The notes: generated from the sequence alone by a model not told the origin. 64,000 nt of DNA from GCA_000165345.1 CM000429.1:96001-160000, one strand, 5' to 3'; shown: positions 2,012 through 34,003, counted from the first letter of the stretch. Program-made: numbers and translations.

Positions 2012-2339
2012 TACTTTTCTCTTTCAATTACTAATCTTTAGCTGTAGTTTAGACAACTCAAAAAAAAAAAAGAAAAAAAGTGTAATATATTAAATATAAA
2101 AAAAGAAATTCATTACTCACACATATATTACAATCTCTACACTTTTTTTCTTATTATTATTGTTATCTTAATATTTTTACATTTTCAATATTTTACAAGT
2201 ACCGGTACTGCAGTGCATACGTCTATGTCTTCCATGCATAAATTTTAGTCGATGAAAAAAGGTGATTATATATATTAGAATGTCAAGAATGAATAAAAAA
2301 TAAATATATAAAAATAATTCAAAAGATTATAGTAAAATT

Positions 2340-4154
2340 CTAGGGTCCTTTAAGTTGTTGTATGACAGAGAATATTTCATCCCAATTTTCATCGGAATAA
2401 TTATTGTGATTCAAGGTTGAATAATAGTTTTTAGATCTAGATAGTTTGTTAAGTTTTAAATTGTTAATTAATTTATAATTTTCATTATAATTATGATCAA
2501 AATTTTGATTTGATAAAGAAGTATTATAAGTTTTATTTCTGATAATTTTGTTCTTCAAGTATGAGATTTCCTCTGAAAGTTTCTTATTTTCAAGATCTTT
2601 GAGTTTAAGTTTTTGTTTGGAGGCATCCAGCTGATTCTTTAAAATATTGATTTCGTTTCTAAGTCTTGTAACTGATACACTGCTTACAAAGTCAATATTT
2701 CTTTCATTATTAGTTTTATTAAGAAAATCTTTCTTGTGAACATTTTCTAAAATATAATTGCTTGTAATAGGAATATCTTCATAATAGTTTTGGTTTTGGA
2801 GATTGCTTATTGATTGGATGAAGATATTGGAAATTCTTTCGACATTTAATTTGGTTTTAGTTTTATTTTGAGGATTTGTTTGAGTTTCTGAATCCATTAA
2901 AAAAGTATTTTTTTTATTCCACAAGAGTTCTTTTAGAGGCTGGAAGACTTTATCAATAATAATAATAAATTCAATTAAATTTGGATAGCTTTCCCAAATC
3001 AGTGAGTCTTTGGAATAATTATCAAAAAGATCAGAAAAGTTTGACTCAAGAATAGATTCACTTTCAATATGATATCCAATGAAATTTAATAGATCTTGTA
3101 AAAAGTCATTTAAGCTTTTTTTTTCAAATTCCAGTTTCTGAACTACTTCATTTAGAACGGAATTATTAGTATTAAATAATTCTTGTTGCTCTAAATGATA
3201 TTTTTCATTTTCGGATGCTTTTTCTAAAAGCTGTTTCATTTGATTTCCCATTTCAATTACTGTTTGTTGACTCTTTTTTAAATTCTCTGATTCTTTTGCA
3301 AAAAGACTTTTTTGTTTAACAAGCTCAAGACTGACTGATGAAAACTGCTCATTTCTCAGATCTAATTGTCTTTGAATTTCAATGTTTAAATCTTCAAGTC
3401 TTTGAATATAGTTATTTTTCTCTATTAGTAATTGTTCATAATCTGTACTTTGCATTGTAGTATCTGGTAAAACCTCAGGGAAAAGTTCAATTTTGTGTAC
3501 CAAAGAACTTACAAACTCATTATTAGTTTTACTAAGTAAAATTTGAATTGAATCTAACATTTGTAAATTCAATTCTATATTTGTATTTGTATTTATTCCT
3601 TTCTCCTCAAACTTTACTTCTTCATCTTTAATATTAATTCTTTCTTCTACTTCTCTCAAACTTTCTTTCTCCTCCATAATATCATGTTCTGCAATTTCAT
3701 TAATCTTATTCTTAGACATCTGCAGAATTTGTGATCTTAATTCTGCAATTTCATCCAAATATATTTTTACCTCCTCTTTGTGTACATTTTTAATTATATC
3801 AGTAACTTGTAATAACTCTAGAGTTTTTGATTTTCTTGCCATATTATAATCATCTAATTTGTCAGGTTCACCAATTTCTCTTAATGTTATATCTACATTG
3901 TTCACATTATCCACAGGTGGCTCCTCATATTGGTTTAATTCTTGCTCATCAAACAGATTTGTTCTTCTTAAAATCGAAGATAAGCTATACTGGGGTTTTC
4001 TATTAGAGTGAACAATATGCCCTATTTCTGACCAAATCATTTTACTCTTATTGCTTTCCGTTTCATCTTGGAAAAATCCTTCATTCGAGCTCGGCTCAAA
4101 TTCAGAGTAACTTTCTGAATTCATTCTTTTTTCTAATTCTTTCTCTTCAATCAT
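2340..4154 (-). CDS. coiled-coil protein (604 aa), function unknown
   Basis: ATG at 4152-4154. Long heptad-like E/K/L/Q-rich stretches (IEIQRQLDLRNEQ..., LEQQELFNTNN...). An E2F-like GGCGGGAA box lies upstream at 4343-4350. Confidence 0.55.
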   Translation of the reverse strand: MIEEKELEKRMNSESYSEFEPSSNEGFFQDETESNKSKMIWSEIGHIVHSNRKPQYSLSSILRRTNLFDEQELNQYEEPPVDNVNNVDITLREIGEPDKLDDYNMARKSKTLELLQVTDIIKNVHKEEVKIYLDEIAELRSQILQMSKNKINEIAEHDIMEEKESLREVEERINIKDEEVKFEEKGINTNTNIELNLQMLDSIQILLSKTNNEFVSSLVHKIELFPEVLPDTTMQSTDYEQLLIEKNNYIQRLEDLNIEIQRQLDLRNEQFSSVSLELVKQKSLFAKESENLKKSQQTVIEMGNQMKQLLEKASENEKYHLEQQELFNTNNSVLNEVVQKLEFEKKSLNDFLQDLLNFIGYHIESESILESNFSDLFDNYSKDSLIWESYPNLIEFIIIIDKVFQPLKELLWNKKNTFLMDSETQTNPQNKTKTKLNVERISNIFIQSISNLQNQNYYEDIPITSNYILENVHKKDFLNKTNNERNIDFVSSVSVTRLRNEINILKNQLDASKQKLKLKDLENKKLSEEISYLKNKIIRNKTYNTSLSNQNFDHNYNENYKLINNLKLNKLSRSKNYYSTLNHNNYSDENWDEIFSVIQQLKGP

Positions 4155-4342
4155 TTATTAAATTTTACCTACGTACTTTTTATTTGTCATTTCAGTATAT
4201 CAATACAGCCTTTCGTTTATTATTCCTCAAATTTCTATCTTTTCTCATTTACATTTGTTGGCTTTATTAATTTGTTCTTTCTTAACGCATGCAAAAAAAA
4301 AATGAGCCCCTCATCAACAAATTAATTTTAAATTCCGGTTTA

Positions 4343-4366
4343 GGCGGGAACAGCTATACCGGTATT
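4343..4366. promoter_or_regulatory. E2F-like box GGCGGGAA followed by ATACCGGTATT, in the divergent promoter between the 2340..4154(-) and 5219..8017(+) genes
   Basis: Sequence taGGCGGGAAcagctATACCGGTATTact. GGCGGGAA and TGGCGCCA are the established Cryptosporidium upstream (E2F-like) elements. Confidence 0.5.
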
Positions 4367-5218
4367 ACTATTTATTTATTAATATTATACTAGTAAAAAA
4401 AATAAGTTGAAGCTTAACTAAATAAAAAAAGTCTTAAAAACAAAGCAAATTTTATCCATTTTCCTAATTAAAATAAGTTTTATATACTCATTCATTGTTT
4501 TTATTATTTTGTTTTTGTTCGTTTTTTTTTAATTTTAATTATTCTCTCGCATTTAGTAATTTTATAGAGTTTGGCGCCTACTATTTTTTCTAAGAATAAA
4601 ACCTCTTAGTTACTTGCTCAGAAATTCACCGCATCTTTTTTTTCTCAATATTATCATTACGAATTAGCAAAGATATATTAAATGGAGGTAGTCTTTGATA
4701 ATGGTTGGGTTTAGGAGCTTCAAACCTTAAAATAATTTCAAAATTTGAAAACAGGTACCTGACTTAATATAATAGACTGAAATAGCACTAGTATAATAGT
4801 CTAGAATATTATTTAGGAGATTTCTCGGATGGAAATTAGGTATTAATCTGGTATTTTTATTTAAAGGAGGCTGGGATCCTAAGTAATCATGGCTTTGAAA
4901 CGTAGATGTTTACGAGTACTAAGTTTATAATTTAATCAGAAGAATATCGCGATATCGTTCACTCATATAAATGTACAGTCTCTTGGGTGCCCCCCCTAGA
5001 AAAGGCTAGAAAAAGATAATAAGATATTTTATATTGTTAAGTATAACATTCTATTCATTTTGCCAGAAAAGTAATTTTCAAAAGTCGATATAATTTGACT
5101 AAATTTTCCTATCCAAAATTTATCAGTTTTAGTACATCTTTCACTTACTAAACTGTAAATAACTTGGATTCTTCTACATTTATAAAATCAGAAATAGAGA
5201 CAATAATATTCATCAAAT

Positions 5219-8017
5219 ATGAGATATTTATTTCTGGCTATTTTTTATTTATTTACCTTATACACTTCACTAATTTATCCAGTTAGTTATGGTTCTAATT
5301 ATTATCAAGCCATTAGTGAAGTTTCTTTGGTAAAACTTAAGACTCTCCCCAAAAATAAGACTGGAGAAAATGGTAGTGGTAAACCAGCTACCCCTAAAGT
5401 AGGATCAAGACCTTCAGCTGTAGGAGGTTCAACTACTTCAGGATCTAGCAGTAAACCTAGGGTTACTATACCAAGACCATTAGGGCATAGCGCCTCTTCA
5501 TCTTCAAGAGTTGTCTCGGGAGCTACGCAAGGGCCTTCAAAAAGAAATAATCAACCTAAGCCAAATGAATCTGGAGCTACAGGAGATCCTTCTGATAAGT
5601 CTGTAGGAACTCCATCTACAGGCTTGTCTACACCAAAAGAGGGGCAATCAGGAGTACAACCTCCATGCGGTGAACCATCTCAAGAGGGAATACCATCTCC
5701 ATGTTTAACATCAAATTCGGCAGCAGGAGGAGTTTCTGAATCCAAGTCATCTACATCTAGCCCAAAGCTTACTACAAAACCAGCACCACTTGGAGTAGCA
5801 CCAAAGCCGTCAGCACCATCTAGGCCAACGAAACCTTCGGGGCCTCTAGCAGGAGTAAGACCACTAGGATCTGGAGTAACATCAAAACCATCTGCACCAT
5901 CTAGACTATCAAAACCACTGGGACCTGGATCAGGAGTAAAACCATTGGGATCTGGAGTAACGCCGAAGCCGTCTGCACCATCTAGACCATCAAAACCACT
6001 GGGACCTGGATCAGGAGTAAAACCATTGGGAACTGGAGTAACGCCGAAGCCATCAGCGCCATCTAGTTCATCAAAACCACTGAAGCCTGGATCAACAGGA
6101 GCATCAAGAGCATCGGCAACAGGAGTAGCACCAAGAGTATCGGCAACAGGGTTAACAAAACCGACATCGTCAGGTTTGTCAAGAGCGTTTTCATCAGGGT
6201 CATCAAAACCATCGACTGGGGGATTATCTAAACAATTGGTAACAGGAACGACAAAATCTTCTGCAGGATTAGGAGCAAGACCGAAATCATCACTACCTAC
6301 TACCAGAGCTTCTCAACCCAAAACCAAACTCGGTACTACAACAACTAGAACTCGTTCTAGGTCTAGGAGCAGATCTAGGAGTAGAGATAGATCTTCAGGT
6401 GGCCATCATCCTCTTGAATCTACAAAACCAGGTTGCAGCGGTGAAACAGGAGATAAAGGAGGTTCAGGTGAGGACCGTTCATCTGGAGGATCATCTGGTG
6501 GTGCATCAGGAGGAGGAGAAGGAGGAAGTGGCGAATCAGGATCCTATGGAGGAAGTGGAAGTGGAGGCGGTGACGATAAAGGAGACAAAGGCAATAACTC
6601 AGGAAGAGGAAGATACGGAATATCTATCGACTCTTCTGGTTCTAGTTCTGATTCTGATTCTGATTCTGATTCTGATTCTGATTCTGATTCGGATTCTAAT
6701 TCTGATGATGAAATTAGAGATGCAGTTTCTTTTGCTGCCATACCTTCCGTCACACTTTTCTGTAGAGAAGTCATTAATTTCGTCACCAACCCCGGTAAAA
6801 CTACCCTATCTTTTGAACAAAATAAAGCCTCTTCACTCGATTATGTTGAAGGGTATTTTTATAAGTGGGAGGCTATCCTGAAAATGTTAAAAAAAAGACT
6901 AGAATCCTTGATTAGGAGGTTTGAGGCGTTGGGTTGTGAAGGTCCAGAAGCTAAAAAAGACCGTAAACTGCAAAAATTATGCCAAAAATTAGAGGAAAAA
7001 ATCAGAGATGTTGAAAGTTCCATCTACTTAGCTAAAAGGAAAATCCACAAACTAAAAAAATGTTTGAAAAAGATTGCAAAAATTGAAGAGGAAGAAGAAG
7101 AAGAAGCGCGTGCACCCAAGAAACATCGTAGAGCTAGGAGGTCACAATCTGATTTGGAAACAGGACATAAAGATTCTCAACAAGAAGCAGGAAGCTCCAG
7201 TGACGAAGATTCATCTCAAAGAGAAAAATACCCTAAAAGACGTTCTAAGAGAGGAAGAAGTGGAGTGGCTGTGAAATCACTCGACGAATCAGCTCTTGGT
7301 GCAGTTGGGGGTCAGCCTTTGGACGGTTCTTCGCTTGAATCCAGAAGTTCAGGCTCCACTTCCAGTCTTGATTCCACAAGCTCCAGTTTATTGGAAAATT
7401 CTGAATCAAGTGTAAGACCTGATCCAGAAAAAGTGCCTGTATATAATGGAAAGGTTATTACTCCTTCTCTTATTTATGAAGAGATAGAATCTTCTCGACG
7501 TCACTGCAAAAGAATCTTATCCTCAATTGGAATTGTAAGCGAAGAAGATTTATCGCAAACTCTAGAACAATTTGGTGTCACAGTATCGGCTTTAAAATCA
7601 TTACTTAGCTCTAACTCAGAAAAGATGTTACAAACTCGAGAGAGATTACTTGAACTTAATCAAAAAACTGGAGAATGTACAAATTCTGGACGTGAAGTAA
7701 AAAGGTGTGAAGTGCGCGCTTTATCTTTGAAATTGAAAAGTGAAATCTACGAGGGTAAGCTGTCTGTTCTAGAAGAATGCCTTTTAAAGATATTAGAAAA
7801 AGTTGTTGAATTGGAACTTGAATATCTATTACCCCAAGTTAAATCAATGGCTTGTAAATTCCATCCTGAGCTCGAACAAACTGTTGAAGAAACTGATCAG
7901 GGAGATGGAAATGATGGCGAAGATGATGATGAAGATGATGATGAAGATGACGATGATGAGGATGGGACCCGATATGATTCTGAATTTTTGAAAGAACTTA
8001 CGGATGATGATTCTTAA
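5219..8017 (+). CDS. secreted mucin-like Ser/Thr/Pro-rich glycoprotein with tandem repeats and an acidic C-terminal tail (932 aa)
   Basis: N-terminal signal peptide MRYLFLAIFYLFTLYTSLIYPVSYG. About 27-aa tandem repeats (KPSAPSRPSKPLGPGSGVKPLGSGVTP) x3, RSRS run, Gly-rich block, (SD)n block, a KEKIRDVESSIYLAKRKIHKLKK coiled segment, and a DDDEDDDEDDDDED tail. Confidence 0.65.
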   Translation: MRYLFLAIFYLFTLYTSLIYPVSYGSNYYQAISEVSLVKLKTLPKNKTGENGSGKPATPKVGSRPSAVGGSTTSGSSSKPRVTIPRPLGHSASSSSRVVSGATQGPSKRNNQPKPNESGATGDPSDKSVGTPSTGLSTPKEGQSGVQPPCGEPSQEGIPSPCLTSNSAAGGVSESKSSTSSPKLTTKPAPLGVAPKPSAPSRPTKPSGPLAGVRPLGSGVTSKPSAPSRLSKPLGPGSGVKPLGSGVTPKPSAPSRPSKPLGPGSGVKPLGTGVTPKPSAPSSSSKPLKPGSTGASRASATGVAPRVSATGLTKPTSSGLSRAFSSGSSKPSTGGLSKQLVTGTTKSSAGLGARPKSSLPTTRASQPKTKLGTTTTRTRSRSRSRSRSRDRSSGGHHPLESTKPGCSGETGDKGGSGEDRSSGGSSGGASGGGEGGSGESGSYGGSGSGGGDDKGDKGNNSGRGRYGISIDSSGSSSDSDSDSDSDSDSDSDSNSDDEIRDAVSFAAIPSVTLFCREVINFVTNPGKTTLSFEQNKASSLDYVEGYFYKWEAILKMLKKRLESLIRRFEALGCEGPEAKKDRKLQKLCQKLEEKIRDVESSIYLAKRKIHKLKKCLKKIAKIEEEEEEEARAPKKHRRARRSQSDLETGHKDSQQEAGSSSDEDSSQREKYPKRRSKRGRSGVAVKSLDESALGAVGGQPLDGSSLESRSSGSTSSLDSTSSSLLENSESSVRPDPEKVPVYNGKVITPSLIYEEIESSRRHCKRILSSIGIVSEEDLSQTLEQFGVTVSALKSLLSSNSEKMLQTRERLLELNQKTGECTNSGREVKRCEVRALSLKLKSEIYEGKLSVLEECLLKILEKVVELELEYLLPQVKSMACKFHPELEQTVEETDQGDGNDGEDDDEDDDEDDDDEDGTRYDSEFLKELTDDDS
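6648..6706 (+). repeat. GATTCT hexamer microsatellite (about 9 units) encoding (SD)n inside the mucin-like CDS
   Basis: gattctgattctgattctgattctgattctgattcggattct. Confidence 0.8.
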
Positions 8018-11305: not shown

Positions 11306-11787
11306 TCTTAAAATTTTCTTTTGTGGCTTATTGTCAAAATTACTTTTTTAGTTACTTGGCCGGGTGAAAATAAAAATTAATGTGGGGGGCTGTTTACAAT
11401 GGGGGAGAGCGCGTTGGAAAAGTTTCAAAAGGTATTAAGCTACAAAGGCAACAAAAAACTATTAGCTTTTTAATAAGCTTATCTTATTTTGGTATTAAAA
11501 AAACTAAAATTTTCATTCTAATTCAATTTATGAGAAGAAACTAAACTCTTAAGTAAAATTTTGAATTTATTCTTCTTTTTCTTTTAATCGTAATAATAAA
11601 TAAAACAAATATTGAAATAATTTCCTTTTATTTCTCTCATCTAATTATTTTATTTATTAAAAGAAATAATTTGTCCACATGAAATTGCATGTAATTTTTT
11701 ATCATCAAAAACATTAGCACACATTCCTATACCGGCATTAATAAAATAAAGAAATTGCATGTGGGGGAAAAAAAATAATCATAAATA

Positions 11788-13128
11788 ATGAATATTTCAT
11801 CATTTAGAATAAAAAGAAGGAAAAAAAGTGAGGATGACGATGATGAGAAAAAAGATAGTTCAAGCTATGAGGAATTACTGGAAGTTATTGCACCAATAAA
11901 CAAATTTAAGAGTAAGCCAGCATTAGGAGTAACTACATTTTCAAGACAAATGTGGTGCGAAAAAAGCTTAGAAATTTGTCTCGAAAATAATATTAAAATT
12001 ACAAGTAAAGCTATTGAAGAAGGTATTAAACACCATGAAGAATTAGAGCTAGAAGATCACCAAGTTCTCAGTGTAATGGTAGAGAATGAATACGAGAAAA
12101 TGGCAATTGAAATTTTAAGTATAGTAAATCTATTGGATGGGTTAATTGAAAGAGGATATATTCGTGAGCTTCCAATAATTGGATTTTACAAAGGAATAAT
12201 GTTAAGGGGAATAATTGATTCATTACAATTAAAACCAAAATTAAATGGAATTGGAGAAACTAATAATGTAAAATATTCATCAAATAACATCAACAAGTTT
12301 ATTATTTTGATATCAGATACAAAAACTAGAAGAAATACAACTCTTCCAAGTAATGTTCAGCAAAAGACTACAGTTCTACAGCTTGGATTGTATAGAAAGA
12401 TATTGGGTGAAATGATTAATTTTGGAAAAATCTGGAAATCTTGCCATCCTAATTTAATTGATTCCAATGCAATTAAAAAATATTTGAATTCTTCTTCAAC
12501 CATAGATTTGTCAAACTGTTGCTCTGGTTGCAGTTTCCTAAATAATATTTTCGAGTTTCATGGATTAGACCCATTAATTTCTTTTTCAATATTTCAAGAA
12601 TTGGAAGATGCAAAAAGAAAGCAATCTTGTAAAGAAAAAAATGATATTTGTGATACAAATCAAGACCAAATTCAAACCGAAACACATTCTGAGACAGAAT
12701 CTGTAGTTGATACTGACGGGAAAAGCGTCCTAAAAGAGTTTGAAAACGCCCTTGAAATTGGTTTTAACATGTTACTTTGCTTCTCAAAACTTCCAGATAT
12801 TCAGTCAGAAATGAAAGTTGAATACGATTGCCAAGGTAAAACTTTCGCTACAAAATGGTATAAGTCTTCAGAACAGACTATTGAGCTTGAACTAGATTAC
12901 TTATTGGGTTGGTGGCTTGGTGCTAGAGAAGCTGAATTTGTTAGAATCTCAGAGGCATGGAAATGTAAGTTTTGTAATGTAATTGAATATTGCCAAGTAT
13001 GTCCTCTTTCAAAAGAAGAAAAAGAGAAATGTATTGAAAAAATACGTCAAGACGAACTAGAGTCATTACTAATTAAAGATTTGGAAGAATCATCTAATGA
13101 GCATATTTTAACATTAAATTGTTCATAA
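11788..13128 (+). CDS. EXO5: Exonuclease V (Exo5/DEM1 family; PD-(D/E)XK nuclease with Cas4-like 4Fe-4S cysteines), 446 aa
   Basis: N-terminal VTTFSRQMWCEKSLEI (the WCE motif of Exo5). C-terminal C-x2-C-x5-C (CKFCNVIEYC) plus the N-terminal Cys gives the one-plus-three cysteine FeS pattern of Exo5/Cas4/AddB nucleases. Basic KRRKK N-terminal tail. Confidence 0.65.
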   Translation: MNISSFRIKRRKKSEDDDDEKKDSSSYEELLEVIAPINKFKSKPALGVTTFSRQMWCEKSLEICLENNIKITSKAIEEGIKHHEELELEDHQVLSVMVENEYEKMAIEILSIVNLLDGLIERGYIRELPIIGFYKGIMLRGIIDSLQLKPKLNGIGETNNVKYSSNNINKFIILISDTKTRRNTTLPSNVQQKTTVLQLGLYRKILGEMINFGKIWKSCHPNLIDSNAIKKYLNSSSTIDLSNCCSGCSFLNNIFEFHGLDPLISFSIFQELEDAKRKQSCKEKNDICDTNQDQIQTETHSETESVVDTDGKSVLKEFENALEIGFNMLLCFSKLPDIQSEMKVEYDCQGKTFATKWYKSSEQTIELELDYLLGWWLGAREAEFVRISEAWKCKFCNVIEYCQVCPLSKEEKEKCIEKIRQDELESLLIKDLEESSNEHILTLNCS

Positions 13129-13436
13129 CTATTTTAAATTTTATTATATGGTCATTAATCAAAAATATGAGATTCAAGTTAAAATATTTTTTTCATATTT
13201 TCTTATATTCATTTTAAACTTAAATAAAGAAATTACTTTTTTTAACAATTCAAATTTAATTTATTGTTAAATACGTGTGAAGCTTAAATAGTACCATAAT
13301 AACTATTAACAAATAATATTTACCTAACACACACTATAAAAGACCCCAAAAAAAAAAAAATTAATGAACAAATAAATGAAATTACTCATCTAAATAATTT
13401 TTAAAAAATAATAAAATTTCATAATTTTGATATATA

Positions 13437-15221: not shown

Positions 15222-15465
15222 AATAGATCTTTTTTAAACCTAGTACATTAATCATCTATAATATCTCATCTATTCTTACCTGAATAAACTTATATATTCT
15301 TCGTTTAACTTGAAAATCCCCATTATTCAGGTCAAAGAAAAACTGAATAGATTAAAAACTGAAATTAGAAAAAACTATAGAAAAAAAATAATGCAGACAT
15401 GTCATAAATAATTTATTTAAAATAAACTATAACTAGTATTCTCTCCCTTAATAATGCATGCAAAT

Positions 15466-15540
15466 ATTACGTGGCCAAATTAATCTTTAATAATTACATG
15501 TGGAAAGCGTGCATATACTATGCAATACCGGCATTACATG
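15466..15540. promoter_or_regulatory. promoter-like motif cluster (GCATGCA ... ATACCGGCATTACATG ... TTGCCGCG) inside a 3'-3' convergent gap
   Basis: taatGCATGCAaatattacgtgg ... caATACCGGCATTacatgtaaatg ... tttgccgcg. The flanking genes (13437..15221 on + and 16051..16548 on -) both end here, so there is no obvious promoter target. Confidence 0.35.
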
Positions 15541-16050
15541 TAAATGATTAAAAACTTTGCCGCGTATACAAATATCAGCTGTCATAAAGATTTAAAAAAA
15601 AAGAAACTGCATACACGATAACTGGAGTATTATTTGTTTTGAATCATTTATATAAATCTTTGTGACTTCTCAAGTGTAATTGTGGAAAGAGATAATAACC
15701 AAGTAAAAATGATCATCAAAAACCTTATTCATTAGTTTACAATGCTTTGAGTAGGAATAAAATATGGATTGTCCGTTCTTCAATCACTTTATATTTGTTA
15801 ATAGGTTCATAAGGCTATAAGAGTAGAAATAGTAATATGTACAATTGTCTCAGATGGATACATAGAAGTTACCATTTCAATTCAAGTAAACACCAAAAAC
15901 AGAAAAAAAAAATGAGAAAGACGAATTCTCTCCATATCACTATAAACTCAAATGAACAATTTTACTAAAATATGTTTATTGCCCAATTATAATTCCCAAC
16001 CTTGAACTTTTTAATAGTCACAAAAAAAAAAGAAATATTTAGTAACTGAT

Positions 16051-16548
16051 TTAAATGTATGATGCACATAATTGGCCAGTTGGCTTTGTAGTACCCATAA
16101 TGATACCAATAATGACACCATAAATGGCCAAAGCTTCACCGAAAACCAAAATCAAAATCATACCAGTAAGAAGTCTTGGTTGTTGAGCAGCAGCTCTAAC
16201 ACCAGCATCACCGACAATACCAATAGCAAGACCGGCAGCTAAACTACTGAGACCAATAACCAAACCAGCGCTCATTTGAGCATAAGCAGTGTAAGCAGAG
16301 TACAAATTTGGTTCTCCCATCTGGAAGAAAATGACCAAAGAACCAATCAAACCATAAATACCCAAAATACCTGCCATAACAGCTGGAATAATTGATCTCA
16401 TAATTAAATCTGGTCTCATTACGGCCATAGATGAAATACCAACACCTGATTTAGCAATTCCATAAGCTGCTCCTAAGTTTGCAAAAATCAAGCATCCTGC
16501 AATTCCCAGAAATCCAAAAAATAAACTGTTTGGGTCACAAGTGATCAT
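16051..16548 (-). CDS. VHA-c: V-type H+-ATPase 16 kDa proteolipid subunit c (165 aa)
   Basis: Four transmembrane helices. Signature GAAYGIAKSGVGI...MRPDLIMRSIIPAVMAGILGIYGL...IVGDAGVRAAAQQPRLLTGMILILVFGEALAIYGVI with the conserved proton-binding Glu in TM4. Confidence 0.9.
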   Translation of the reverse strand: MITCDPNSLFFGFLGIAGCLIFANLGAAYGIAKSGVGISSMAVMRPDLIMRSIIPAVMAGILGIYGLIGSLVIFFQMGEPNLYSAYTAYAQMSAGLVIGLSSLAAGLAIGIVGDAGVRAAAQQPRLLTGMILILVFGEALAIYGVIIGIIMGTTKPTGQLCASYI

Positions 16549-17878: not shown

Positions 17879-18376
17879 TTACTTAATAGGTACACAAAGA
17901 TTATTCGCAGAAGGGCTGGAAATGAGTACCAATGAAACAATAATACCATAAATTGCAAGTGCTTCACCAAAGATAAGTATAAGCATTGAAGCAACAAATA
18001 ACTTAGATTGTTGAGCAGTACCACGAATTCCTGCATCACCTGCAACACCTATAGTAAAACCACTAGCAGCACAACTGAAACCAGAGATTAATCCAGCAGC
18101 AAGATGACAATATCCCTGATATAATGAATAGTCTGTCCTTATTTGAGAACAAATAATGACTCCCACAATTAAACCATAAACTCCTAAAATACCTGCCATA
18201 ACAGCTGGAATAATTGATCTCATTACTAAATCTGGTCTCATTACACCACATGATGCAATTGCTAATCCTGCTTTAGCTGTACCATAAGCTGCTCCAAAGT
18301 TTGATAAAGCTGTAGCCAAAGTTGAACCAAGCATTCCAAATAAAGTTGCTGTTGGTGTACAAAATGGAGGTGCCAT
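17879..18376 (-). CDS. second V-ATPase proteolipid c-type paralog (165 aa)
   Basis: MAPPFCTPTATLFGMLGSTLATALSNFGAAYGTAKAGLAIA...MRPDLVMRSIIPAVMAGILGVYGLIVGVII...IGVAGDAGIRGTAQQSKLFVASMLILIFGEALAIYGIIV. Same fold and orientation as 16051..16548, roughly half the residues identical. Confidence 0.85.
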   Translation of the reverse strand: MAPPFCTPTATLFGMLGSTLATALSNFGAAYGTAKAGLAIASCGVMRPDLVMRSIIPAVMAGILGVYGLIVGVIICSQIRTDYSLYQGYCHLAAGLISGFSCAASGFTIGVAGDAGIRGTAQQSKLFVASMLILIFGEALAIYGIIVSLVLISSPSANNLCVPIK

Positions 18377-19404
18377 CTTTATCTAATTTTCTTATCTCTG
18401 TTTTCAATAATATAACAATTGGTAGATATTCTCTATTATTTGTTCAAGATTCCGTAAATTTCCGAATTTTGTCTAATAAACTTTTATTAGTCTAATCTTC
18501 TTTAATCGATCTTCTAATTGGAATCTTTTTCAAATCTTATTACTATTATTATTTTCTTTCAGTTTTTCCTTTCCCTCGTAATTGATATTTTTCTCTTAAT
18601 TATTTAATTCTCAATATTCACCAAACCTACCCATTTTACCGCCATGAGACAATTTCCTTCCCGCCTATTTCTTATTGCTTTATATTAATTTTTTGGTTAA
18701 GAAAATTTCTGTCATCCACTCTCTTTTCAAATTTGAATTAATAAAATGGATTAATATTGTGTTTTTATAGCTTAGTATCAGCTTTATAAGTTTTCAAAAA
18801 AAACAATTGAACGAAAAAGCATAAATATTGTTAATTGCGCATTGAATGTTCACTATTTTTGTTTTTTTTTCTCTTGAACTTTATACATTCTTTTTTCTTG
18901 ATTAACTTATTAATTTTTATATAAATTTTGGGAAAAATTACAATATATGAGTTACAGACAATTTCACGATTGGTTGATATCTGAATAGTTTTTTTTTTTT
19001 TTTGCCTTTTCTTTTTGATTTTTTTTCATTAATTCCTTTATTTCTCACATTTCAAATACTTCTGCGAAATACGGTCATATTGTTTTGCTCTTCATATCGA
19101 TATTTGCATGATTATCTTTTAACATTCATTCTTTTTCCTAATTTAAAATAAATAATTTATGTGGATGCATGCCATTAATATATTCAGTTAAAAACGATGA
19201 CGTAATACATGCAGAAAATGATTAAACAAATTATTGTCATGCAATTTGTATACCGGTCTGCAAACATTACATGCAAATTACACGTAATAAGTAATGTAGT
19301 AAATGTTGAGAAAAGAAAATATATTAAACAAGTAAAACAAAAAAACAAAGTTATCATACAAAATGTATTATATATAAATACATAAATATATATTTTAAAT
19401 CTAA

Positions 19405-26700: not shown

Positions 26701-29700
26701 AGAATTTCCACAGATTTGAAAGATAATAACCATTTTCGAGGAAATACTAATATTAATATTAGTAATTGCAATAATAATAGCAGTAGTAGTAACAGTCAAT
26801 TCGATGAAATCTTTAGGAATTATTGCAATGACTACTTCTCCTTGCTTGATGAGCATGTGATTTCAGACAAATATCAAAAATCCAGCTTTGAGATGATCCA
26901 AGAATATAAGAGGATTTGTTTATATACTGAAAGTAATATAAGCATCCCTTTAGAATATGGCCAAATAACAGATTACATGATTCTTGGAGAATTTGGATAT
27001 GGAATAAAATCTGATCATATTTCATTATCAAGAAGCTTTAAGCAAATAATAACTAGGATTCCTAGAGTTGATTGCTCAATTGGTATTCATGATAGAAACA
27101 AGAATTTCGAGTTTGTATTAAAGATATTTCCTGTTTCAATTGATGTTTTTCTCTCAAACAGATTGATTTGGGATTTGTTTGGAGAATGTACACTTGAGGA
27201 TTTATTTGATATAAATAAGGAAGATCATCCCAGAATTTTTCCAGAAATCTCCAATTATTATTGCTGTAGATCAGAAGAGTCATTTCAATGGGATGATCAT
27301 AATTGCCAGGCTCACCCTCATTCTCAAAATGACTGTAGTAGGATCATTTCCGATATTCCACATGTAATAAAAAGTAATGAGAATTTTGAGGTGGTGACGG
27401 AAAATTTCTTATCATCTTCATCATCATCCTCTCCGCCTTTAGCCCTCATAGAGGAATTCCAATCGGATAGAAAAAGAAGTTTATATGATTCCACTCAAGA
27501 GATTCTGAAGACAACTCCCATTTTTGTTAGTATTCGAATTCATACAGAAAAACCAAGTACTCAACTAAAGATGTATTCAAAACTGCTTTCAGTTTCAATT
27601 GATTCAAGTAGAGTCCAATCAATTAATGAGATCTTGAATTCATTTGAGCTCAGGAATATAAACACAAACAAGAATAATCCGTCGTACCAAGTATCCAATA
27701 ATATCTCAAATCACCCTTCAACTTTGACCAGTTCGAACAATACAACTATAAATAATCATCCAATGAGCGTTTTGTCAAACACAATGAATAGTGTTGCAGG
27801 TGGAAATCTTCCACCTCCAATTTACTATTCACATAACTTGAACCCAACAAACAGTATAGTAAGTTCTGGAGATCAGGCCCAAAATCTAAGTTCCCATATT
27901 TCACAACAAGGATACAACTTTAATGCATATCCCACAGCAAAGACTCCTTCAGTATTATCTTTCTCGAACTATTTTTACGACCAAAAACAAGAACAGGGTC
28001 AAAGAATAAACGCAATGAACCTATTGAACTTGAATAATAAAACCAAGAATGCAAATCCCAAATCTAATTCTTTGGACTTTAATGCCAATCGACTTCTTTT
28101 AAATTGTGATTTGAATGATAAGAATGTAATGAATATGCTTAAGTTTGAAATTGATAAATTTTTAGCAGATAATCCGCTTTTTTATACAGTTGTTGATAAT
28201 ATCCAATGTCAGGCTGGAGGAGACAATAACCATCTTAACCAATATAGGCTTCAGATAGAATGTATTGTAGATCAGCTGAATGTTGATATGTTCATTAATA
28301 ACAAAAGATTCTCAAATTTCCAATCAAAAGATATTAACTTTGTTATGTTCTCAAATAATAATCCTTCAAACTCAACAATAATAGAGTTTGATACATCATT
28401 TATCCATTTATCGGCCAATAAAGACTTTGTACAGTCGAATGGCAACTCAAATGTTATTCCAGGTACAAACGGCGTTGGTAGTGGCGTTGTTTCTGGTAAC
28501 AATAATAGCAATTACAATAATCAAATTAACTTTAATATCTCGAATTCCAATTTAAATCCAAATTCAAACAATATCTTCAATGCAAATGGTAATGGTATTG
28601 GTAATGGAAATGTAAATTCCAATATCATTGGAGAAGGTGGAACGGGTCTTAATCATAATAACTCAGGCTTGAATGTTAGTTCGGTATCTACGATTGAAAA
28701 TAGCATTAATGCAACTTCTCAGGAAGAAATTTCCATAATTCATCCCATGTACATTGATGGACATACTAGTCAGGGGCATGGACATGTTTTATCAATTCGT
28801 ATAAATATGAGGCAGGTTAGATTACTAGAAGTATATAACATACGAATCTTAGAGAGCGTTGTAATCAGAGTCCATCCAATTCGGGTAAACATTACTCAAT
28901 ATTTAACTTCTTGTTACTATGATATATTCTTCCCACCACCAATAACAAACCAGCCAAGCATGACTTCAATCCAAATTGGAAGTAATACCCAGAACTTTTT
29001 ACAAATGTCAAATGTTGCTTCTGAAGCTGCTTCATCCAAGATAAAAGAAGATAATGCTATTTATGCCGAAAACTCTTACATTATCAATAGTAATACCAAT
29101 AGTGATATAACAATACCAACAATTGAACAAGAAAATTCTTCTTTAACATTTAATAACCAACAACCACAAAATAATAACACATCAGTAGACACGCAAAACT
29201 GCTCAAAAAATATACTATACTTTAATTACCTTCGAATATCATCAATTCTTGTGGAAGTCACTTATCGTGGATCTGTATCGTTAAATAACGTACTTTTGGA
29301 ACTTAGCTCTTTCACTCAAAGAAGAAAGCATAGAACTGTAAAGGAAATGGTTGACAAATATATCTCTTTCCTTAGACGTCAAGCTGCTAGACCTGTTATT
29401 TCATATACTTTCAAACAACTCAGACACTCTTTACTTCCTAAACACTTCAAATCCCATAAACGTAATAGCAACTATAATTCTCATTATGATATTATCCAAG
29501 CAAATATTCAAAATAACCACCTTAATAATGGAAATGAACGTTCCTTGAAAATTGATTCTTCTTATCAAGACCTTCTTTCTGAAACTACAAACAATGGAAA
29601 TCATTCCAATTACAACAATAATATTAACTCCATTCTTTCTAAAAACGACGATGACCTTCCTAACACTTATCGCAAGATTCAAAATACCAACTGCTCAAAA

Positions 29701-29757
29701 AATGACTCAGAATACAATAAATTTAGACTCATCTTTGGTAATCAACTTTTGATTTAA
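20770..29757 (+). CDS. giant (~2995 aa) Asn/Ile/Ser-rich protein with an N-terminal transmembrane anchor; function unknown
   Basis: The first codon of track ORF 20734 is TTG. The first ATG in frame is at 20770 (MSVLQIILSIILIIFSLLCIFVHIL, a transmembrane helix). The frame stays open to 29757. Poly-Asn encoded by (AAT)n at about 22735-22775. Confidence 0.6.
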   Translation: MSVLQIILSIILIIFSLLCIFVHILKQFLQKKGFEVSFSGFFSLGNLKIKILEKYLKKYDNISGFEFFLSKISIRFQSWKLKFILYESKCICFILNGNHFKNKQFDHHLSQYSRLQNHSSRKTNIGTDDNSIGIIRNLMLIVTAQIISRIILFELENIQFQFYMVDCKCIGNHRNLKITQDGRCEKCGIQMKYGIYSKLDINSLSIFPKAYFGGIMVNFLINNPVLYLNPIENTISEKRCHTFYLNSNNKYNSSSNHKTSILNYILNQFYMKNNKTISKKCHSNQNNYPPLIYIDNNLNIKLKLMHSMSGSDIRVCILRNVNIEMNQLWITLIPEIICELVYIFHTIKSNFKNLNKISFNKNNLQVLDPNIINQSDPIIKLSPKYQLLSNNVLPISPIPLASPSSPSIISSSNSYSHSPLPPSFGNFENKVPRNKKKLIMNENLDRQLQITFKISQPSLIFCDNTQSSSGFEILFHEFEAHLIIQYFIEYLQSTLKLYNQDYDFESSNSEISDFNIIGNESNHFDLDTTDLKKKTRRSLKLVFGSKLIFGNSILYLNPKESHYFSKQIMPNTIKDGDFTFDRMFVIEHYKSIVEISDNNFVKLYLKSSIQRMFGIWRENGFYQNLTLFLQLIKFQKYLSKIKNQVNIDNSGNSNNNNNNNNNNNIEKPFIDQATEEIPKLPSRVELEDDDILKSDFLIKNNKYLKEIMTIKDFAVNLLFYLEIKDITIQTNDINCFNHELHILKKNDCSNNHCENCFIESFGPKERYEWRTDFDYESDTKFNMKIKKDDNDTDHDNHNDDKFFILKINNLKICNTSINRSFSMLFSDLDLYSMNEFIDLEDISTKYLNLPSCLKHNHDILDFQKTCIYRYGCFDQRIQVLNFEISPKIRDKNHLVKLCESIIISPWDYKRISLRFKGINGNLHTCYIPIYLYILGCFSIDCLALKKNNLNKVYYGINNQFEENFDFYCNQRFNYFEKFNEIKNDISNIIREFNPQELKNRNIQFWNIPDLIQSKVGSLKYTWYFDFDDITVNFLDGFKLLVNKLSLYRCNEYGNYDIKMNNVKIFDIFGINIINSNCIRLRSDIPYKSTKIKSPICLKKQLRRILDLSVNGDLLLLSILGNTEKSENNLKDINNGMIFFDSKRFILEIDKLDILFFVNCEYMESFFKYFYQYIYITYYQLFHPPLIIRTGKLLSFSRNHPIIFSCNNIFDFSITKMNLSLISLANFMLSQNFERFSLGSSVYRNKIYSKDDLYIQNNFKFDNSLNHKIKFGINNIFNLPIFELKLDNLRLIIRTKHTSNSKSVCNDRECYNIPNYLTNSMISEEGFLINSSYNPINIFVSLFGISFNLYNQLNLYKSRTTIQSRKEITFFSENIVIDFRRNYSHVDSNINGDFPELSSDVTISIYSKSKTSVNLSNASSFKAIKFINPIFEMIKNCPNFKSKFQKSNCEVFSKEFKNIIISRNTLIISIITSDLTSLYLVPYINLQSEREMSENSSVCIQLPKIEFYLKKYNNSHVENQEINNFLSQIESSSLFLKEGILIWILSKEIFAPVSNKKLQCRLSSILNSKNQKYSLKSTLVSISKFNINTQRNTYNNFNIKLDLDGLDKKSIIERCFGNDFNNGDNTQNMVIPLTLNLDSEKLIQLSTILESFLDESNFDSISIYYCEDCNKFKPTKSESLLRSQKVLNLDQKSLSHEKNNNQPELNFKLKISLNYINLRYEIFSLIINHVLLDLRYCNSKIGNLKLGIKETQLIAEYFPYKLSQFSKSSQSFKILRESSIQISSNFSAKTKMLEIARIGSIFFDNNNDSILLVLRAPQFSLSTLTIIYLEVLIKIINMLKLKSKRVPFKNEKSSLSPINNTSSIPLISGRKLNIQINEIMFNMHNLGTFRDYTIQRDDRKFRLGSSYSGFKKINIVPDLDTQSEFLFQVIERNPINSTFTLVDDLEESNTNLDIFKGNNGQSCLECRYHLNKALIYTSRISTDLKDNNHFRGNTNINISNCNNNSSSSNSQFDEIFRNYCNDYFSLLDEHVISDKYQKSSFEMIQEYKRICLYTESNISIPLEYGQITDYMILGEFGYGIKSDHISLSRSFKQIITRIPRVDCSIGIHDRNKNFEFVLKIFPVSIDVFLSNRLIWDLFGECTLEDLFDINKEDHPRIFPEISNYYCCRSEESFQWDDHNCQAHPHSQNDCSRIISDIPHVIKSNENFEVVTENFLSSSSSSSPPLALIEEFQSDRKRSLYDSTQEILKTTPIFVSIRIHTEKPSTQLKMYSKLLSVSIDSSRVQSINEILNSFELRNINTNKNNPSYQVSNNISNHPSTLTSSNNTTINNHPMSVLSNTMNSVAGGNLPPPIYYSHNLNPTNSIVSSGDQAQNLSSHISQQGYNFNAYPTAKTPSVLSFSNYFYDQKQEQGQRINAMNLLNLNNKTKNANPKSNSLDFNANRLLLNCDLNDKNVMNMLKFEIDKFLADNPLFYTVVDNIQCQAGGDNNHLNQYRLQIECIVDQLNVDMFINNKRFSNFQSKDINFVMFSNNNPSNSTIIEFDTSFIHLSANKDFVQSNGNSNVIPGTNGVGSGVVSGNNNSNYNNQINFNISNSNLNPNSNNIFNANGNGIGNGNVNSNIIGEGGTGLNHNNSGLNVSSVSTIENSINATSQEEISIIHPMYIDGHTSQGHGHVLSIRINMRQVRLLEVYNIRILESVVIRVHPIRVNITQYLTSCYYDIFFPPPITNQPSMTSIQIGSNTQNFLQMSNVASEAASSKIKEDNAIYAENSYIINSNTNSDITIPTIEQENSSLTFNNQQPQNNNTSVDTQNCSKNILYFNYLRISSILVEVTYRGSVSLNNVLLELSSFTQRRKHRTVKEMVDKYISFLRRQAARPVISYTFKQLRHSLLPKHFKSHKRNSNYNSHYDIIQANIQNNHLNNGNERSLKIDSSYQDLLSETTNNGNHSNYNNNINSILSKNDDDLPNTYRKIQNTNCSKNDSEYNKFRLIFGNQLLI

Positions 29758-29782
29758 TTGCTTCAACTGACTGCTTTGCAAC

Positions 29783-29870
29783 TCCCGCCCACTATTCCTC
29801 TTGTAATTATCTGCATGCGACCAAGTACATGCAAAAAAACACTTGCAATATACCGGCATTGGTTGGCGCC
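29783..29870. promoter_or_regulatory. motif cluster upstream of the WD40 gene: CTCCCGCCC (E2F-like, reverse), GCATGC, ATACCGGCATT, TGGCGCCA
   Basis: aactcccgcccac ... ctgcatgcgacc ... caatATACCGGCATTggtTGGCGCCAtacg. Confidence 0.45.
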
Positions 29871-30129
29871 ATACGTGGGAAGTTTTTTATCTGACAAATT
29901 TCCTGAATTATTTATTTTTTTTATTTTCTTTATTCTTTAGTTTATTCTTTTTTTTTAACTTGAAATAATAATATGAGAGTTAGGGTTTAAAATTATGATT
30001 ATTTGTTCTTTTTTCTTGGATTTTAGAGAAAGATATTCTTGTTGTGTATAATTTGGATTTTAAGTTATCCACATAAATTAATGTTATTTGACTTTCAAAA
30101 AGGCCAGAAATTGAATGAATTGAAAGAGA

Positions 30130-31567
30130 ATGGAAGAACCTAATTACCAGGAGGAATCAATAGAATGTATTGCATCTTGTAATCTTTCTGTAAGTTCAAA
30201 TGATTAGAATAAGTGAAATGCGGATTTTTTTTTTGTTACTAAATGAAAAAATAAAGAAATTTTCGTTATCAAGTAATTAAATAAACTAAATAACTTTGAT
30301 TTTTATAATTTTCACTAATAATCATAATTTCAGAATGAAAACACTCCTGTTGGAATAATTCTAAATGATACAGAAAAGAAAGTCTTAACAGCATGTAATG
30401 ACAAGCTTTACTACTTTAATTTGAGTGAGATTATTGATTCATATACTTCATTTCTTGAAAAAGAAGATGGAAGAATTTCCTATTACAAATCTATTCATCT
30501 AGGGTAAGATTTCACGAATTTAATCATGAGAAATTATTTTTCAAATTTATCAAAAATCTAATGATTTTTAGAGGAAATATAAGAAGTATTTCTAGAAATA
30601 AACAAATAAGAGACCATTTAAGAACCAATAATATGGCCTTATTTGCCTTGAATTGTAGAAATTATCCAGTAAAAGTATATAATTTTGATGGTGAACTAAT
30701 AACTAGCGTATATATGAGAAACCAATTTGAAGAAATTGATGAAATTTATTCACTGGAATTTATATATTCAGAAGAATCATCTATTATTTTAGGAGGAGGA
30801 AAGAATTGTATCCATGTATATGATTATAATTCCGGTAAAACACTTGAATATATCGTAAGTTTAATCCCAATATTAATATTCTTAATTAAAATTAAACTAA
30901 ATATTCGTAGAATTTCAATTCCAAAGAATGTAAAATAGAAAATTCAAAATGCCAGAAAGGTATTATATCATGTCTATCACTCAAAACAAGTGGTATAGGA
31001 TCTTTCTCTGTATTTGCATCAGGATCTTTCTCAAAAACAATCTTTTTACATGATTTAAGTGACCTTCATAGCCAAATTCAACTCAGTGATAACAATTTAA
31101 ATCTTAATTCTGTAACTGAACTTTATTGGTTAGATGGTTCCTATGATTCTAAGTTTATGGATTACCACTTAATTTCTGGTCATAGAAATAGTGACTACTT
31201 ATATATTTGGGATGTAAGGAAGCCTAATAATATACTTTTTAAATTAGATAGAGAAAATTTTGGTTCAAATCAAAGATATAATATTAACCTTAAATATTTT
31301 GAAGATGAGTTAATATTAACTTATGGAGATTCCAGAGGAAACCTTAATATACAAAAACTAAAATTTAATTATGATTACAATAAATTCCTTCAAAATGTAA
31401 AGCAAAGACAAAAAATCAAATTAAAAAGTCAATCCATTCCTTGCGTTGAGAGGTTTTTTGATCAAAAGTTATTAGTTACGTTATCTGGTGAAAGATTCAC
31501 GAGTTGCGAAAAAGATCAAGGATGCACTTTCAATGTTTGGAAGATTAACACGAATACCCCCAGTTAA
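30130..31567 (+). CDS. WD40-repeat protein (374 aa), four exons: join(30130..30189, 30334..30503, 30572..30854, 30956..31567)
   Basis: Introns: GTAAGT...aatttcAG (30190-30333), GTAAGA...gatttttAG (30504-30571), GTAAGT...aaaatgccAG (30855-30955). Track ORFs 30561..30938 and 31157..31567 are its exon 3 and exon 4 fragments. WD-like motifs GSFSKTIFLHD and GHRNSDYLYIWDVR. 1125 nt = 375 codons. Confidence 0.55.
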
Positions 31568-31758
31568 TTTGTGTTTCTCAAATCCAAATATCATTTTCTG
31601 ATTGAATCTCATTATTACTTTAAATCTTATTTTCAATTTCAGATCCAAAGTTAATCATTTCCCAAACTTTTTATTTTCATTCAATTTAAAGTATTATTAA
31701 TATATGCTTATTATTAGCATTATTATTTTTAAATTTATATTATAAAACAATTATAAAC

Positions 31759-32463
31759 TTATTTCCTTTTTTTATTACCAGAATTGTTCTTACTATCATT
31801 ATTAGATAAACTCTCCTCCTGTTCAAGTAACTCCTGAGCAATTTTATTTGCAAGATTGCTTTCAGTTTTCTCTTTTTCCTTGGCTTTCTTCTCCTCTAAT
31901 TCTTTCTCCTTAGCAAGTCTCTCCTTTTGTAAGCGCATTTCTTCTTGTTGTTTTCTAATAGCATTCAGCTTTCTGGCATCCAAAAATATATAATCTCCCC
32001 AGGAATCCTGAATTAAGTTTGCTTCATCTCTTATATATTCTACAGTATCTTTTAGTTCTTCCATAGAATTCTCAACATATAACCACTGCTTTTCTGAAAG
32101 AAGTAATTTCTTATATAATTGCATATTTCCCACATACTCTGATGAAATTCTGGAATAATTATCTTGAACTGCCATTGCTGCTCTTAATAAAGCTTTCTTC
32201 ATTTCAGATACAAGCTCTGGACTTGATGCTCTAAGTCTTAGACGGAACTCCTCAAGACCTACATTTTGTGGAGCAACTTCATCTCTTAATTGAAAATAAT
32301 GTTTCAAATCTTTTTTAGGAAATGTTAATCTACCAGATGAAATAAATGCATCACAAAGAGCTTCATCTTGGGAATTCAAAATTTCAACATCCTTAAATGA
32401 ATAATAGACTATTATTCCAAGAAGGAAACATGAAACAATGAAAAATAAGATTTGTAGCCACAT
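31759..32463 (-). CDS. single-pass membrane protein with a K/E-rich coiled tail, possibly a Sec66 (Sec71)-like translocon subunit (234 aa)
   Basis: N-terminal transmembrane helix LQILFFIVSCFLLGIIVYY. Central region MKKALLRAAMAVQDNYSRISSEYVGNMQLYKKLL...EANLIQDSW resembles yeast Sec66 (KVLKAALLNRGA...LLYKNGSIGEDYW...EAERLQPGW). The family assignment is tentative. Confidence 0.4.
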   Translation of the reverse strand: MWLQILFFIVSCFLLGIIVYYSFKDVEILNSQDEALCDAFISSGRLTFPKKDLKHYFQLRDEVAPQNVGLEEFRLRLRASSPELVSEMKKALLRAAMAVQDNYSRISSEYVGNMQLYKKLLLSEKQWLYVENSMEELKDTVEYIRDEANLIQDSWGDYIFLDARKLNAIRKQQEEMRLQKERLAKEKELEEKKAKEKEKTESNLANKIAQELLEQEESLSNNDSKNNSGNKKRK

Positions 32464-34003
32464 ATATGTACATATAATATATTATAAATTGTTTTTGTCG
32501 TTATTTTCTTTCGTTTTTCCTTTAAATCATAAATTAACCACAGCTTTACGTGAGATTTACCCAGTAACTTGTATTATTATTTTAATGTTATTCTTAATTT
32601 ATATTTAAACTCTGTAGAATTTAAGTTTTCAATATTATTAAAAAAAATTGAAGAAAACTGTTGTTTTCCTAATAGTAAGCCAATAAAATTATTATTTTAA
32701 TCCAGAAAAAAAGAAAACACACAGAATTTCTTTATCTCTGTCTTTCTCTCTAAATAAATAAACTTGTTCACTAAAATAACAATTTTACAATATTTCTTAA
32801 TTTGTTTCGTATTTAATCCTCAACTCTTCGCATCAGCGCCCCCCAACCGCCATTTAATCATTATGCCTCATTTTTTTTCTACTAAGCAAATGAATACTTA
32901 GATCTAAACTTACCCTCAAATTGAAAATTATTATTATTTTTTTTATAACTTTTATATTAACTCAATTGAAAGTAAAAAAGCACTTTCCAATACGCTTTTC
33001 TCTTAATCTGTATATCAAATTAATTAATAATCCTCTTAATTCTTTTAATTCATTATTTTTTCCAGGATTATCTTTAGCTATAAAAAAGCTATTATTTTTA
33101 AGCTTTAATATTATTATTCTGCCCATATCACTTTAAATAAGTCCAAAACGAAAACAAATGAGCATAAAAACTGCACCAATCCACCCTCATTTCTCTCTAA
33201 AAGTTACAATTTACTTGAAATTTGTAACTCGAATTTTTGACTCTTCTTAACACACTTTCTGAGAAATTTACTCTTAAAATAAAAATTATAATTTAAACTT
33301 TTCTTGATTTTGTTTACACGTAATATTAATATTTTTTTCTTATTAACTGAATTATTTTCTCAAAATTGCTTGCATGCATTTGCCCCTCACTTTTAAAACC
33401 TCGTCATGCACATTCTTATATACCGGTGTCGCAGTTTTTTATGTGGACAATTTTTTGGCTCAATTGCAATGCATGCAATTTCGAGAAAATCAAATTTGAA
33501 TAAAAGAAATAATTAATATTTCTGGATGGAGAGGGAAAACAAAAAAAAAAGAAGAAACAAAGAGTTCCTCAAGTGTAAAGTTAAAATCAAAATAAAATGT
33601 AACAGAAGCGATAACTATATCATCTATTTTAATATTACAGTAGTCACATAATTTAAACTTGAATAATAATTTAATAAGAAAAAAAGGTAAGTATTACTTT
33701 TTTTGTGTTGAATAAATATGCCAAATTCGTATTTGTATTTTAATAAGAGCAAAAATCAATCCATTTTTCTATTTTCTAGATTCTTCCCTTGACTCTTTCC
33801 TACACTTTATTCATTTATTCTCTTGAATTACTATAAAATTAATCTCTATTATGTCCAAATATAAGCATCTCATATTCAGAAATATAAAGAATTACTAATA
33901 TTTGGAAATTATTAAAGTAGTTGGCTTTTTTTGCTCTGATAATGTGAATATGAATATAAATGCACAGTGGTAGGAATAAATCAAAACAACAAATACAAAT
34001 TAC

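Follow-up and report, generated by a model that had tools for sequence, protein, structure and literature searches.

(T)ATACCGG(T/C)AT, a selectively maintained intergenic palindrome and candidate cis-regulatory element of intestinal Cryptosporidium

The short word (T)ATACCGG(T/C)AT recurs at seven intergenic places in a 64,000-nucleotide (nt) stretch of Cryptosporidium parvum DNA (GCA_000165345.1 CM000429.1:96001-160000), which was analysed as a whole and is called the window here. The intergenic copies are under purifying selection. The element is therefore real, in the sense that it is selectively maintained, and it has no name in the Cryptosporidium literature that we reached. Its sequence, conservation and context suggest, with a probability of about 0.68, that it is a cis-regulatory element of the intestinal clade of Cryptosporidium and most likely the site of a sequence-specific protein that would bind as a dimer.

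The window showed 99.9–100% identity to chromosome 1 of C. parvum IOWA-ATCC (CP044422.1, ~716.6–780.6 kb, reverse strand), and the Exo5 gene (11788-13128) was encoded identically in two C. parvum assemblies. Gene positions were taken from the annotations accompanying the retrieved loci and from long open reading frames. About 72% of the window was genic, and the intergenic DNA amounted to 18 kb with a GC content of 25.8%. Two regions, one containing Exo5 and the other the DrpB dynamin gene, were compared with their orthologous loci in C. meleagridis (L004), chipmunk genotype I (L006, L011), C. ubiquitum (L005), C. canis (L007, L012), C. felis (L008), C. ryanae (L009), and C. muris (L013, L014). 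Gene order was conserved across the species, so the intergenic gaps could be aligned one by one.

All seven copies listed in the first-pass annotation of the window were recovered at their coordinates. The 11-mer ATACCGGYATT occurred four times in the window, always on the + strand, and in none of 100 dinucleotide-preserving shuffles. The annotation had expected fewer than 0.01 copies; base-composition arithmetic gives approximately 0.03–0.06, against which four copies are still far beyond chance. The core TACCGG gave 12 strand hits in the window versus 3.0 expected, a number that no shuffle reached. These hits correspond to 10 places, because a palindrome is hit on both strands and two of the sites (2200 and 4357) are palindromic. 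Of the 10, seven are in the 18 kb of intergenic DNA and three in the 46 kb of genic DNA. The intergenic enrichment within the window was 8.2-fold (9 strand counts versus 1.1 expected), whereas the genic count was at expectation (3 observed versus 2.1). The annotation had also stated that no copy lies inside a coding sequence, which was wrong because three reverse-strand copies, read as CCGGTA, sit in coding sequence (6792, 30832, and 60591).

Since the motif had been picked after looking, all hexamers were scanned. In intergenic DNA and under an order-2 Markov model, TACCGG ranked 12th of 2080 strand-collapsed hexamers (P = 2.6 × 10−6), in a count that takes both palindromic sites twice. The words ranked above it were only CATGCA/GCATGC, the E2F words (GGCGCC, GGCGGG, TGGCGC, GCGGGA), a G run, and A/T runs. 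TACCGG also had the highest enrichment among the 16 TACNNG words. Counted as seven distinct sites, its enrichment had a P of approximately 1 × 10−4, which in the window alone fails Bonferroni correction for 2080 hexamers, and the case therefore rests on cross-species conservation. Two wider definitions of the word were rejected. In a general TAC-NN-GTA half-site model only some central dinucleotides were enriched, with CG the strongest by far, and the intergenic TACCGC words, tried as a variant of TACCGG, proved to be the E2F-type word TTACCGCC. A scan for repeated 8–10-mers was swamped by coding repeats and was uninformative.

For every one of the seven intergenic copies, at least one other species had retained it at the aligned position (7/7). 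Retention was 5/5 sites in C. meleagridis and 4/7 in chipmunk genotype I; in C. canis, 4/7 sites were exact and in register, and one more was shifted. For comparison, 15–16% of C. parvum intergenic hexamers were perfectly retained in chipmunk genotype I and 3.2–3.4% in C. canis, so that 4/7 against the 3.4% background of C. canis has a binomial P of about 4 × 10−5. The five intergenic TACCGG words in the C. canis loci were all orthologous to C. parvum sites. TATACC, ATACCG, and TACCGG were among the most conserved hexamers in the C. parvum–C. canis alignments, level with TGGCGC (E2F) and CATGCA. The conservation of the motif peaked at positions −2 to +5. Two of the three coding copies were compared (6792 and 30832), and they were conserved in no species examined.

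A site-weighted matrix of all conserved instances read T(0.71) A(0.71) TACCGG T(0.72)/C(0.28) A(0.60) T(0.69). This matrix describes a symmetric palindrome of 10 bp, ATACCGGTAT, as the full element. Mean identity among the 80-nt flanks of the seven sites was 30.0%, compared with 28.7% for random pairs. The copies are thus not a dispersed repeat or the remnant of a mobile element, because the similarity does not reach into the flanks. No Rfam family was found at or near the sites, and permissive scans of 15222-16050 and 32464-34003 gave nothing credible. A tRNA-Leu gene at 56853-56933 (−) was the sole confident Rfam or ARAGORN hit in the window.

The first-pass annotation had placed the motif near GCATGCA or TTACATG, and this held: the median distance from the sites to CATGCA was 25 nt, versus 248 nt at random intergenic positions (P = 0.001). 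The nearest CATGCA box was 15–71 nt away at every site, and TACCGG usually stood between two CATGCA-type boxes. ACATG, ATGTGGA, and TACGTG/ACGTAA were also closer to the sites than random. The proximity to E2F boxes that had also been claimed did not hold, as such a box lay within 30 nt at just 3/7 sites, no closer than random (P = 0.9). The comparison of C. parvum with C. canis also showed strong retention of ATGTGGA(CAA) and TACGTG (33441-33450, 15496-15503, and 19159-19165; C. canis L012). The word ATGTGGACAA is motif5 (TTGTCCACATK), which Li et al. 2021 placed upstream of long non-coding RNAs (lncRNAs).

The palindrome ATACC|GGTAT suggests that a putative factor would bind it as a dimer. 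The element may act inside composite modules: CATGCA/ACATG (AP2_1-type) boxes stand approximately 15–30 nt away, frequently together with ATGTGGACAA and TACGTG words, and in some cases an E2F box is adjacent. Four copies are 58–279 nt upstream of start codons (Table 1), which would be typical promoter positions. The sites at 15526, 19251, and 33421 stand in comparable modules but are nearer to gene 3′-ends; they probably promote unannotated transcription, antisense or intergenic, or have a long-range effect. An effect on transcription is predicted from conservation and context.

Table 1. Copies of the element and of its core in the window, with gene context and state in other species (aa, amino acids; chipmunk, chipmunk genotype I).
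Core	Sequence	Coordinates	Strand	Context	Other species
2200	palindrome GTACCGGTAC	2199..2208	.	189 nt upstream of the ATG of a 588-aa gene (−); 140 nt beyond the stop of a 604-aa gene (−)	identical in C. meleagridis; TACCGG on opposite strand with 2-nt shift in C. canis; one mismatch in chipmunk; lost in C. ubiquitum and C. felis
4357	GGCGGGAA (E2F-type box) + 6 nt + palindrome ATACCGGTAT	4343..4365	.	divergent promoter region; 203 nt upstream of the start codon of the 604-aa gene	box and TACCGG at 6-nt spacing in C. meleagridis and chipmunk, 5-nt in C. ubiquitum; missing in C. canis and C. felis
11730	TATACCGGCATT	11728..11739	+	58 nt upstream of the Exo5 ATG, 425 nt from the ATG of a DUF842 gene (divergent pair); TGCATG boxes at 11686 and 11756	block ATTCCTATACCGGTA kept in C. 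meleagridis, chipmunk, C. ubiquitum, and C. canis
15526	AATACCGGCATT	15524..15535	+	gap between converging genes (3′-ends of a 594-aa gene and V-ATPase c); in a conserved cluster with GCATGCA 15455, CATGTGGA 15496, ACATGT 15536, TTGCCGCG 15557	intact TACCGG in C. meleagridis, C. canis, and C. felis; one base differs in chipmunk (TATCGG) and in C. ubiquitum (TACCGT)
19251	TATACCGGTC	19249..19258	+	154 nt beyond the stop of a zf-jaz gene; 875 nt upstream of the start codon of the second V-ATPase c gene; CATGCA at 19238 and 19270, plus ACGTAAT words	kept in C. meleagridis; TATACCAT in chipmunk and TATACCGT in C. canis (TATACC retained); TACCGG in the same intergenic gap of C. ryanae (L009:16611)
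29851	TATACCGGCATT + 4 nt + GGCGCC + A + TACGTG	29849..29877	+	279 nt upstream of the ATG (30130) of a WD40/CDC20-like gene; 94 nt beyond the stop of a 2995-aa gene	block AACACTTGCArTATACCGGC...GGCGCCATACGTGGG kept in chipmunk and C. canis
33421	TATACCGGTG + 12 nt + ATGTGGACAA	33419..33450	+	mid-gap (1540 nt); 958 nt upstream of the start codon of a 234-aa gene, 583 nt beyond the stop of the DrpB dynamin gene	block ATTCTyrTATACCGGTnnCGCAGT..ATGTGGACAA kept in chipmunk and C. canis
6792	CCGGTA		reverse	coding, in a 930-aa protein	
30832	CCGGTA		reverse	coding, exon of the WD40/CDC20-like gene	
60591	TATACCGGAG (read on − strand)	60589..60598	−	coding sequence of a 1273-aa secreted protein	

Several observations weigh against the regulatory interpretation. 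Retention was incomplete in C. ubiquitum (2/5) and C. felis (1/5), and C. muris had no TACCGG in 44 kb of orthologous sequence. Flanking positions from −13 to +20 were also conserved above background; because these neighbouring bases exceed background too, part of the conservation signal belongs to the whole module. The sites at 15526, 19251, and 33421 are far from annotated 5′-ends, one of them between converging genes, and in the searched part of the lncRNA sequence file of Li et al. 2021 no transcript covers these three. Since 3/7 sites are away from annotated gene starts, 'upstream element' is too narrow a term. Motif discovery on sporozoite ATAC-seq data returned E2F-type and poly-T motifs only. 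The sampled DNA was the 64 kb of C. parvum and the orthologous loci, and what points to a function is conservation and context only.

In C. muris, the CATGCA word had 1 intergenic and 6 genic copies at the orthologous loci, with no intergenic enrichment; the C. parvum window had 50 CATGCA strand counts in its 18 kb of intergenic DNA. The 10.4 kb of C. muris intergenic DNA contained no ATGTGGA, TACGTG, or TACCGG, and E2F-like GGCGCC/CGGCGG boxes persisted. The AP2_1-type vocabulary appears to be absent from this gastric species at these loci.

The main rival explanation is that TACCGG is a boundary or terminator site, at which a general factor of the Reb1/TTF-I Myb type would stop read-through or keep a nucleosome-free gap between tightly spaced genes instead of activating one given promoter; we regard this as unlikely. 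Five of the seven sites are 94–583 nt beyond a stop codon, three of them at 94–154 nt, but in gaps of 330–370 nt all positions are near a stop, and this proximity therefore weighs little. One site is located between converging genes, where a promoter is not expected, and in two long gaps the motif is far from the downstream ATG (875 and 958 nt); the sites at 4357 and 11730, however, belong to divergent promoter regions and have no gene 3′-end close by. A Myb protein, PITG_08960, is able to bind an ACCGG core. The yeast Reb1 site TTACCCGG resembles the element. Against such a role, the motif accompanies the promoter words CATGCA, E2F, and ATGTGGACAA, and a general boundary element would be expected in more than the approximately one-third of the window gaps that have a copy.

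Another explanation is that selection acts on the neighbouring CATGCA/E2F modules and that TACCGG is carried along unbound. The conserved stretch around the core (−13 to +20) and the CATGCA box that is always within 15–71 nt are in favour of such a passenger. It would be expected to vary, however, and the same 8–10-nt word is found at seven unrelated loci with random-like flanks. The conserved islands in C. canis are short and centred on the word, and TATACC and TACCGG belong to the best-conserved hexamers. We hold this explanation to be less probable than a boundary site. Chance recurrence, noticed afterwards in a small AT-rich sample, is the least probable of the three: the motif was chosen after looking, its seven distinct sites fail the correction for 2080 hexamers, and no intergenic copy lies in the window's second half, but the 11-mer was found in none of the shuffles, the retention at orthologous positions is significant by itself, and the extended word recurs at other C. 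parvum loci in published supplements. Both the passenger and the chance explanations are disfavoured because the word recurs in unrelated flanks and its retention is independent of the motif choice.

The coding copy at 60591 is of uncertain membership in the element class. Its context suggested an intergenic position, which was rejected, as the copy sits inside a real coding sequence with a signal peptide. Around it, at 60540-60690 (− strand), GGCGCC, GCATGCATGTGG, ATTATACCGG, TTGCATGGG, and CATGCGCACAC form a promoter-like cluster in approximately 130 nt. This cluster may act as a promoter, internal or antisense, or may have arisen by coincidence.

The gap between the 594-aa gene and V-ATPase c showed two further conserved blocks. 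A 27-nt AT-rich block at 15407-15433, AATAATTTATTTAAAATAAACTATAAC, was nearly unchanged in all six aligned species including C. felis, and a conserved TATA-like block, GAATCATTTATATAAATC, was found at 15641-15658. The two blocks bracket the CATGCA/TACCGG/E2F cluster and have no Rfam match. The gap may be an unannotated transcription unit. Two tandem copies of the gene for the 165-aa V-ATPase proteolipid (c subunit) are located at 16051-16548 and 17879-18376, with a small Nop10 gene between them. This V-ATPase c/Nop10/V-ATPase c arrangement was kept in all species examined, including C. muris. A block at 18630-18680, CCCATTTTACCGCCATGAGACAAT...TTCCCGCC, was conserved from C. parvum to C. ryanae; on the upstream side, it precedes the second V-ATPase c gene by approximately 260 nt.

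Two coding regions of the window contained tandem repeats. Units of 81 nt were found at 5791-6094 in the 930-aa protein, and Gly/Thr/Pro-rich units of 15–108 nt were found at 37910-39002 in a 2527-aa protein. Both coincided with local GC peaks of 0.41–0.43.

The claim that the motif is not a named Cryptosporidium element agreed with the published lists: it is missing from Oberstaller 2013 (25 motifs), Mullapudi 2007, Cohn 2010, and the tables of a 2025 review. No CCGG-type motif of any kind was present in Mullapudi 2007, Cohn 2010, Oberstaller 2013 with its supplements, Oberstaller 2014, Xiao 2025, or the 2025 review; the lists compared do not include Bankier et al. 2003 (over-represented non-coding words, chromosome 6). 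The literature combining TACCGG, TACCGGTA, or ACCGGT with Cryptosporidium or Apicomplexa gave primers only, oomycete papers aside. Li et al. 2021 reported that C. parvum antisense RNAs lie mostly at gene 3′-ends, with E2F and AP2_1 motifs upstream. In the supplement of that work, other C. parvum loci have the motif adjoining TGCATGCA and ATGTGGACA, and two lncRNAs have it upstream, at −80 and −20.

Little is understood of how Cryptosporidium regulates its genes; there are about six named motif families, and most non-AP2 factors have no known target. A compact palindrome kept by selection is a concrete handle, since a 10-bp probe could capture the factor. The parasite can now be genetically modified, and a CCGG-to-AATT change (ATACCGGTAT to ATACAATTAT) can be assessed in promoters. 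The element may point to a second class of regulator beside AP2, because it partners CATGCA yet matches no published primary AP2 motif. The modules beside gene 3′-ends also bear on the start points of abundant antisense transcripts.

The Cryptosporidium elements AP2_1 (TGCATGCA), E2F (GGCGCC/GGCGGGAA), G-box, and motif5 (TTGTCCACATK; Li et al. 2021) are likewise short, intergenic, over-represented, and conserved. They share modules with the TACCGG element but differ from it in sequence. Two true copies, CCTATACCGGCTGTC and CCCATACCGGCGTTC, are included in the MEME motif4 of Li et al. (CCCATACCAGGTGGA), but the consensus of motif4 matches a 15-nt word repeated every 15 nt upstream of one lncRNA.

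The first-pass annotation had proposed a candidate transcription factor site, possibly of the AP2 type. Conservation supports a functional cis-element, probably a transcription factor site, whereas the AP2 part is without support because no primary motif published for the 18 C. parvum ApiAP2 proteins resembles TACCGG (primary motifs only were compared). The published primary motifs are TGCAT-like, CACACA/GTGTGT, G-box, GCGTGCA, GGTGCACC, and AAAA. Four of the proteins have no array motif and are possible candidates. The plant DRE/CRT element TACCGACAT is bound by DREB-type AP2/ERF domains and is one base from TACCGGCAT, so AP2-fold domains can read a CCG core. DRE/CRT is, however, non-palindromic, and the C. 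parvum element lacks the CCGAC core that defines it. We know of no ApiAP2 protein with DRE/CRT-type specificity.

The closest likeness was found in oomycetes. The predicted promoter palindrome TACCGGTA is M94 of Phytophthora infestans (Roy et al. 2013, PMC3597505), motif-9 GTACCGGTA is upstream of 1284 genes (Seidl et al. 2012, PMC3520976), and streme-5 of Plasmopara halstedii is ATACCGGTAT (PMC10031896). In consensus and palindrome, the oomycete motif is identical to the C. parvum ATACCGGTAT. Like the C. parvum element, it is abundant, lies upstream, was found computationally, and has no assigned factor. A sister palindrome of P. infestans, TACATGTA (M93), parallels the TACATG words adjoining the C. 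parvum copies. Oomycetes are stramenopiles, not apicomplexans, and the gene sets carrying the motif are effector-rich and infection-related. The 10-bp palindrome could have arisen twice, in oomycetes and in Cryptosporidium. Alternatively, and doubtfully, ATACCGGTAT would be an ancient oomycete–Cryptosporidium word, read by a conserved non-AP2 (probably Myb-like) factor together with CATGCA-binding AP2s, and the CATGCA/TACCGG vocabulary would have been lost or replaced in the gastric lineage of C. muris. In a variant of this idea, a Reb1-like general factor would mark gene boundaries in a compact genome.

For the cis-regulatory element proposed here, our leading guess at the factor is a Myb-type protein; an AP2 protein without an array motif or a zinc-finger protein would be equally possible. 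The C. parvum Myb proteins listed as DNA-binding include cgd6_4510, cgd3_2510, cgd3_1120, cgd5_110, and Myb-M cgd6_2250. The P. infestans Myb protein PITG_08960 had NACCGGTC/ACCGGCC as its top 8-mers on protein-binding microarrays (PMC11267843, supplement file 3), and it is the sole in-vitro precedent found for the ACCGG(T/C) core. It shares this core with the C. parvum element, and TACCGGTC is identical to the copy at 19251. It prefers the flank ...GTC(G/A), not ...GTAT, in measurements made in vitro and for another organism. Because PITG_08960 prefers NACCGGTC on binding arrays, a Myb-type factor is a reasonable candidate for the Cryptosporidium palindrome.

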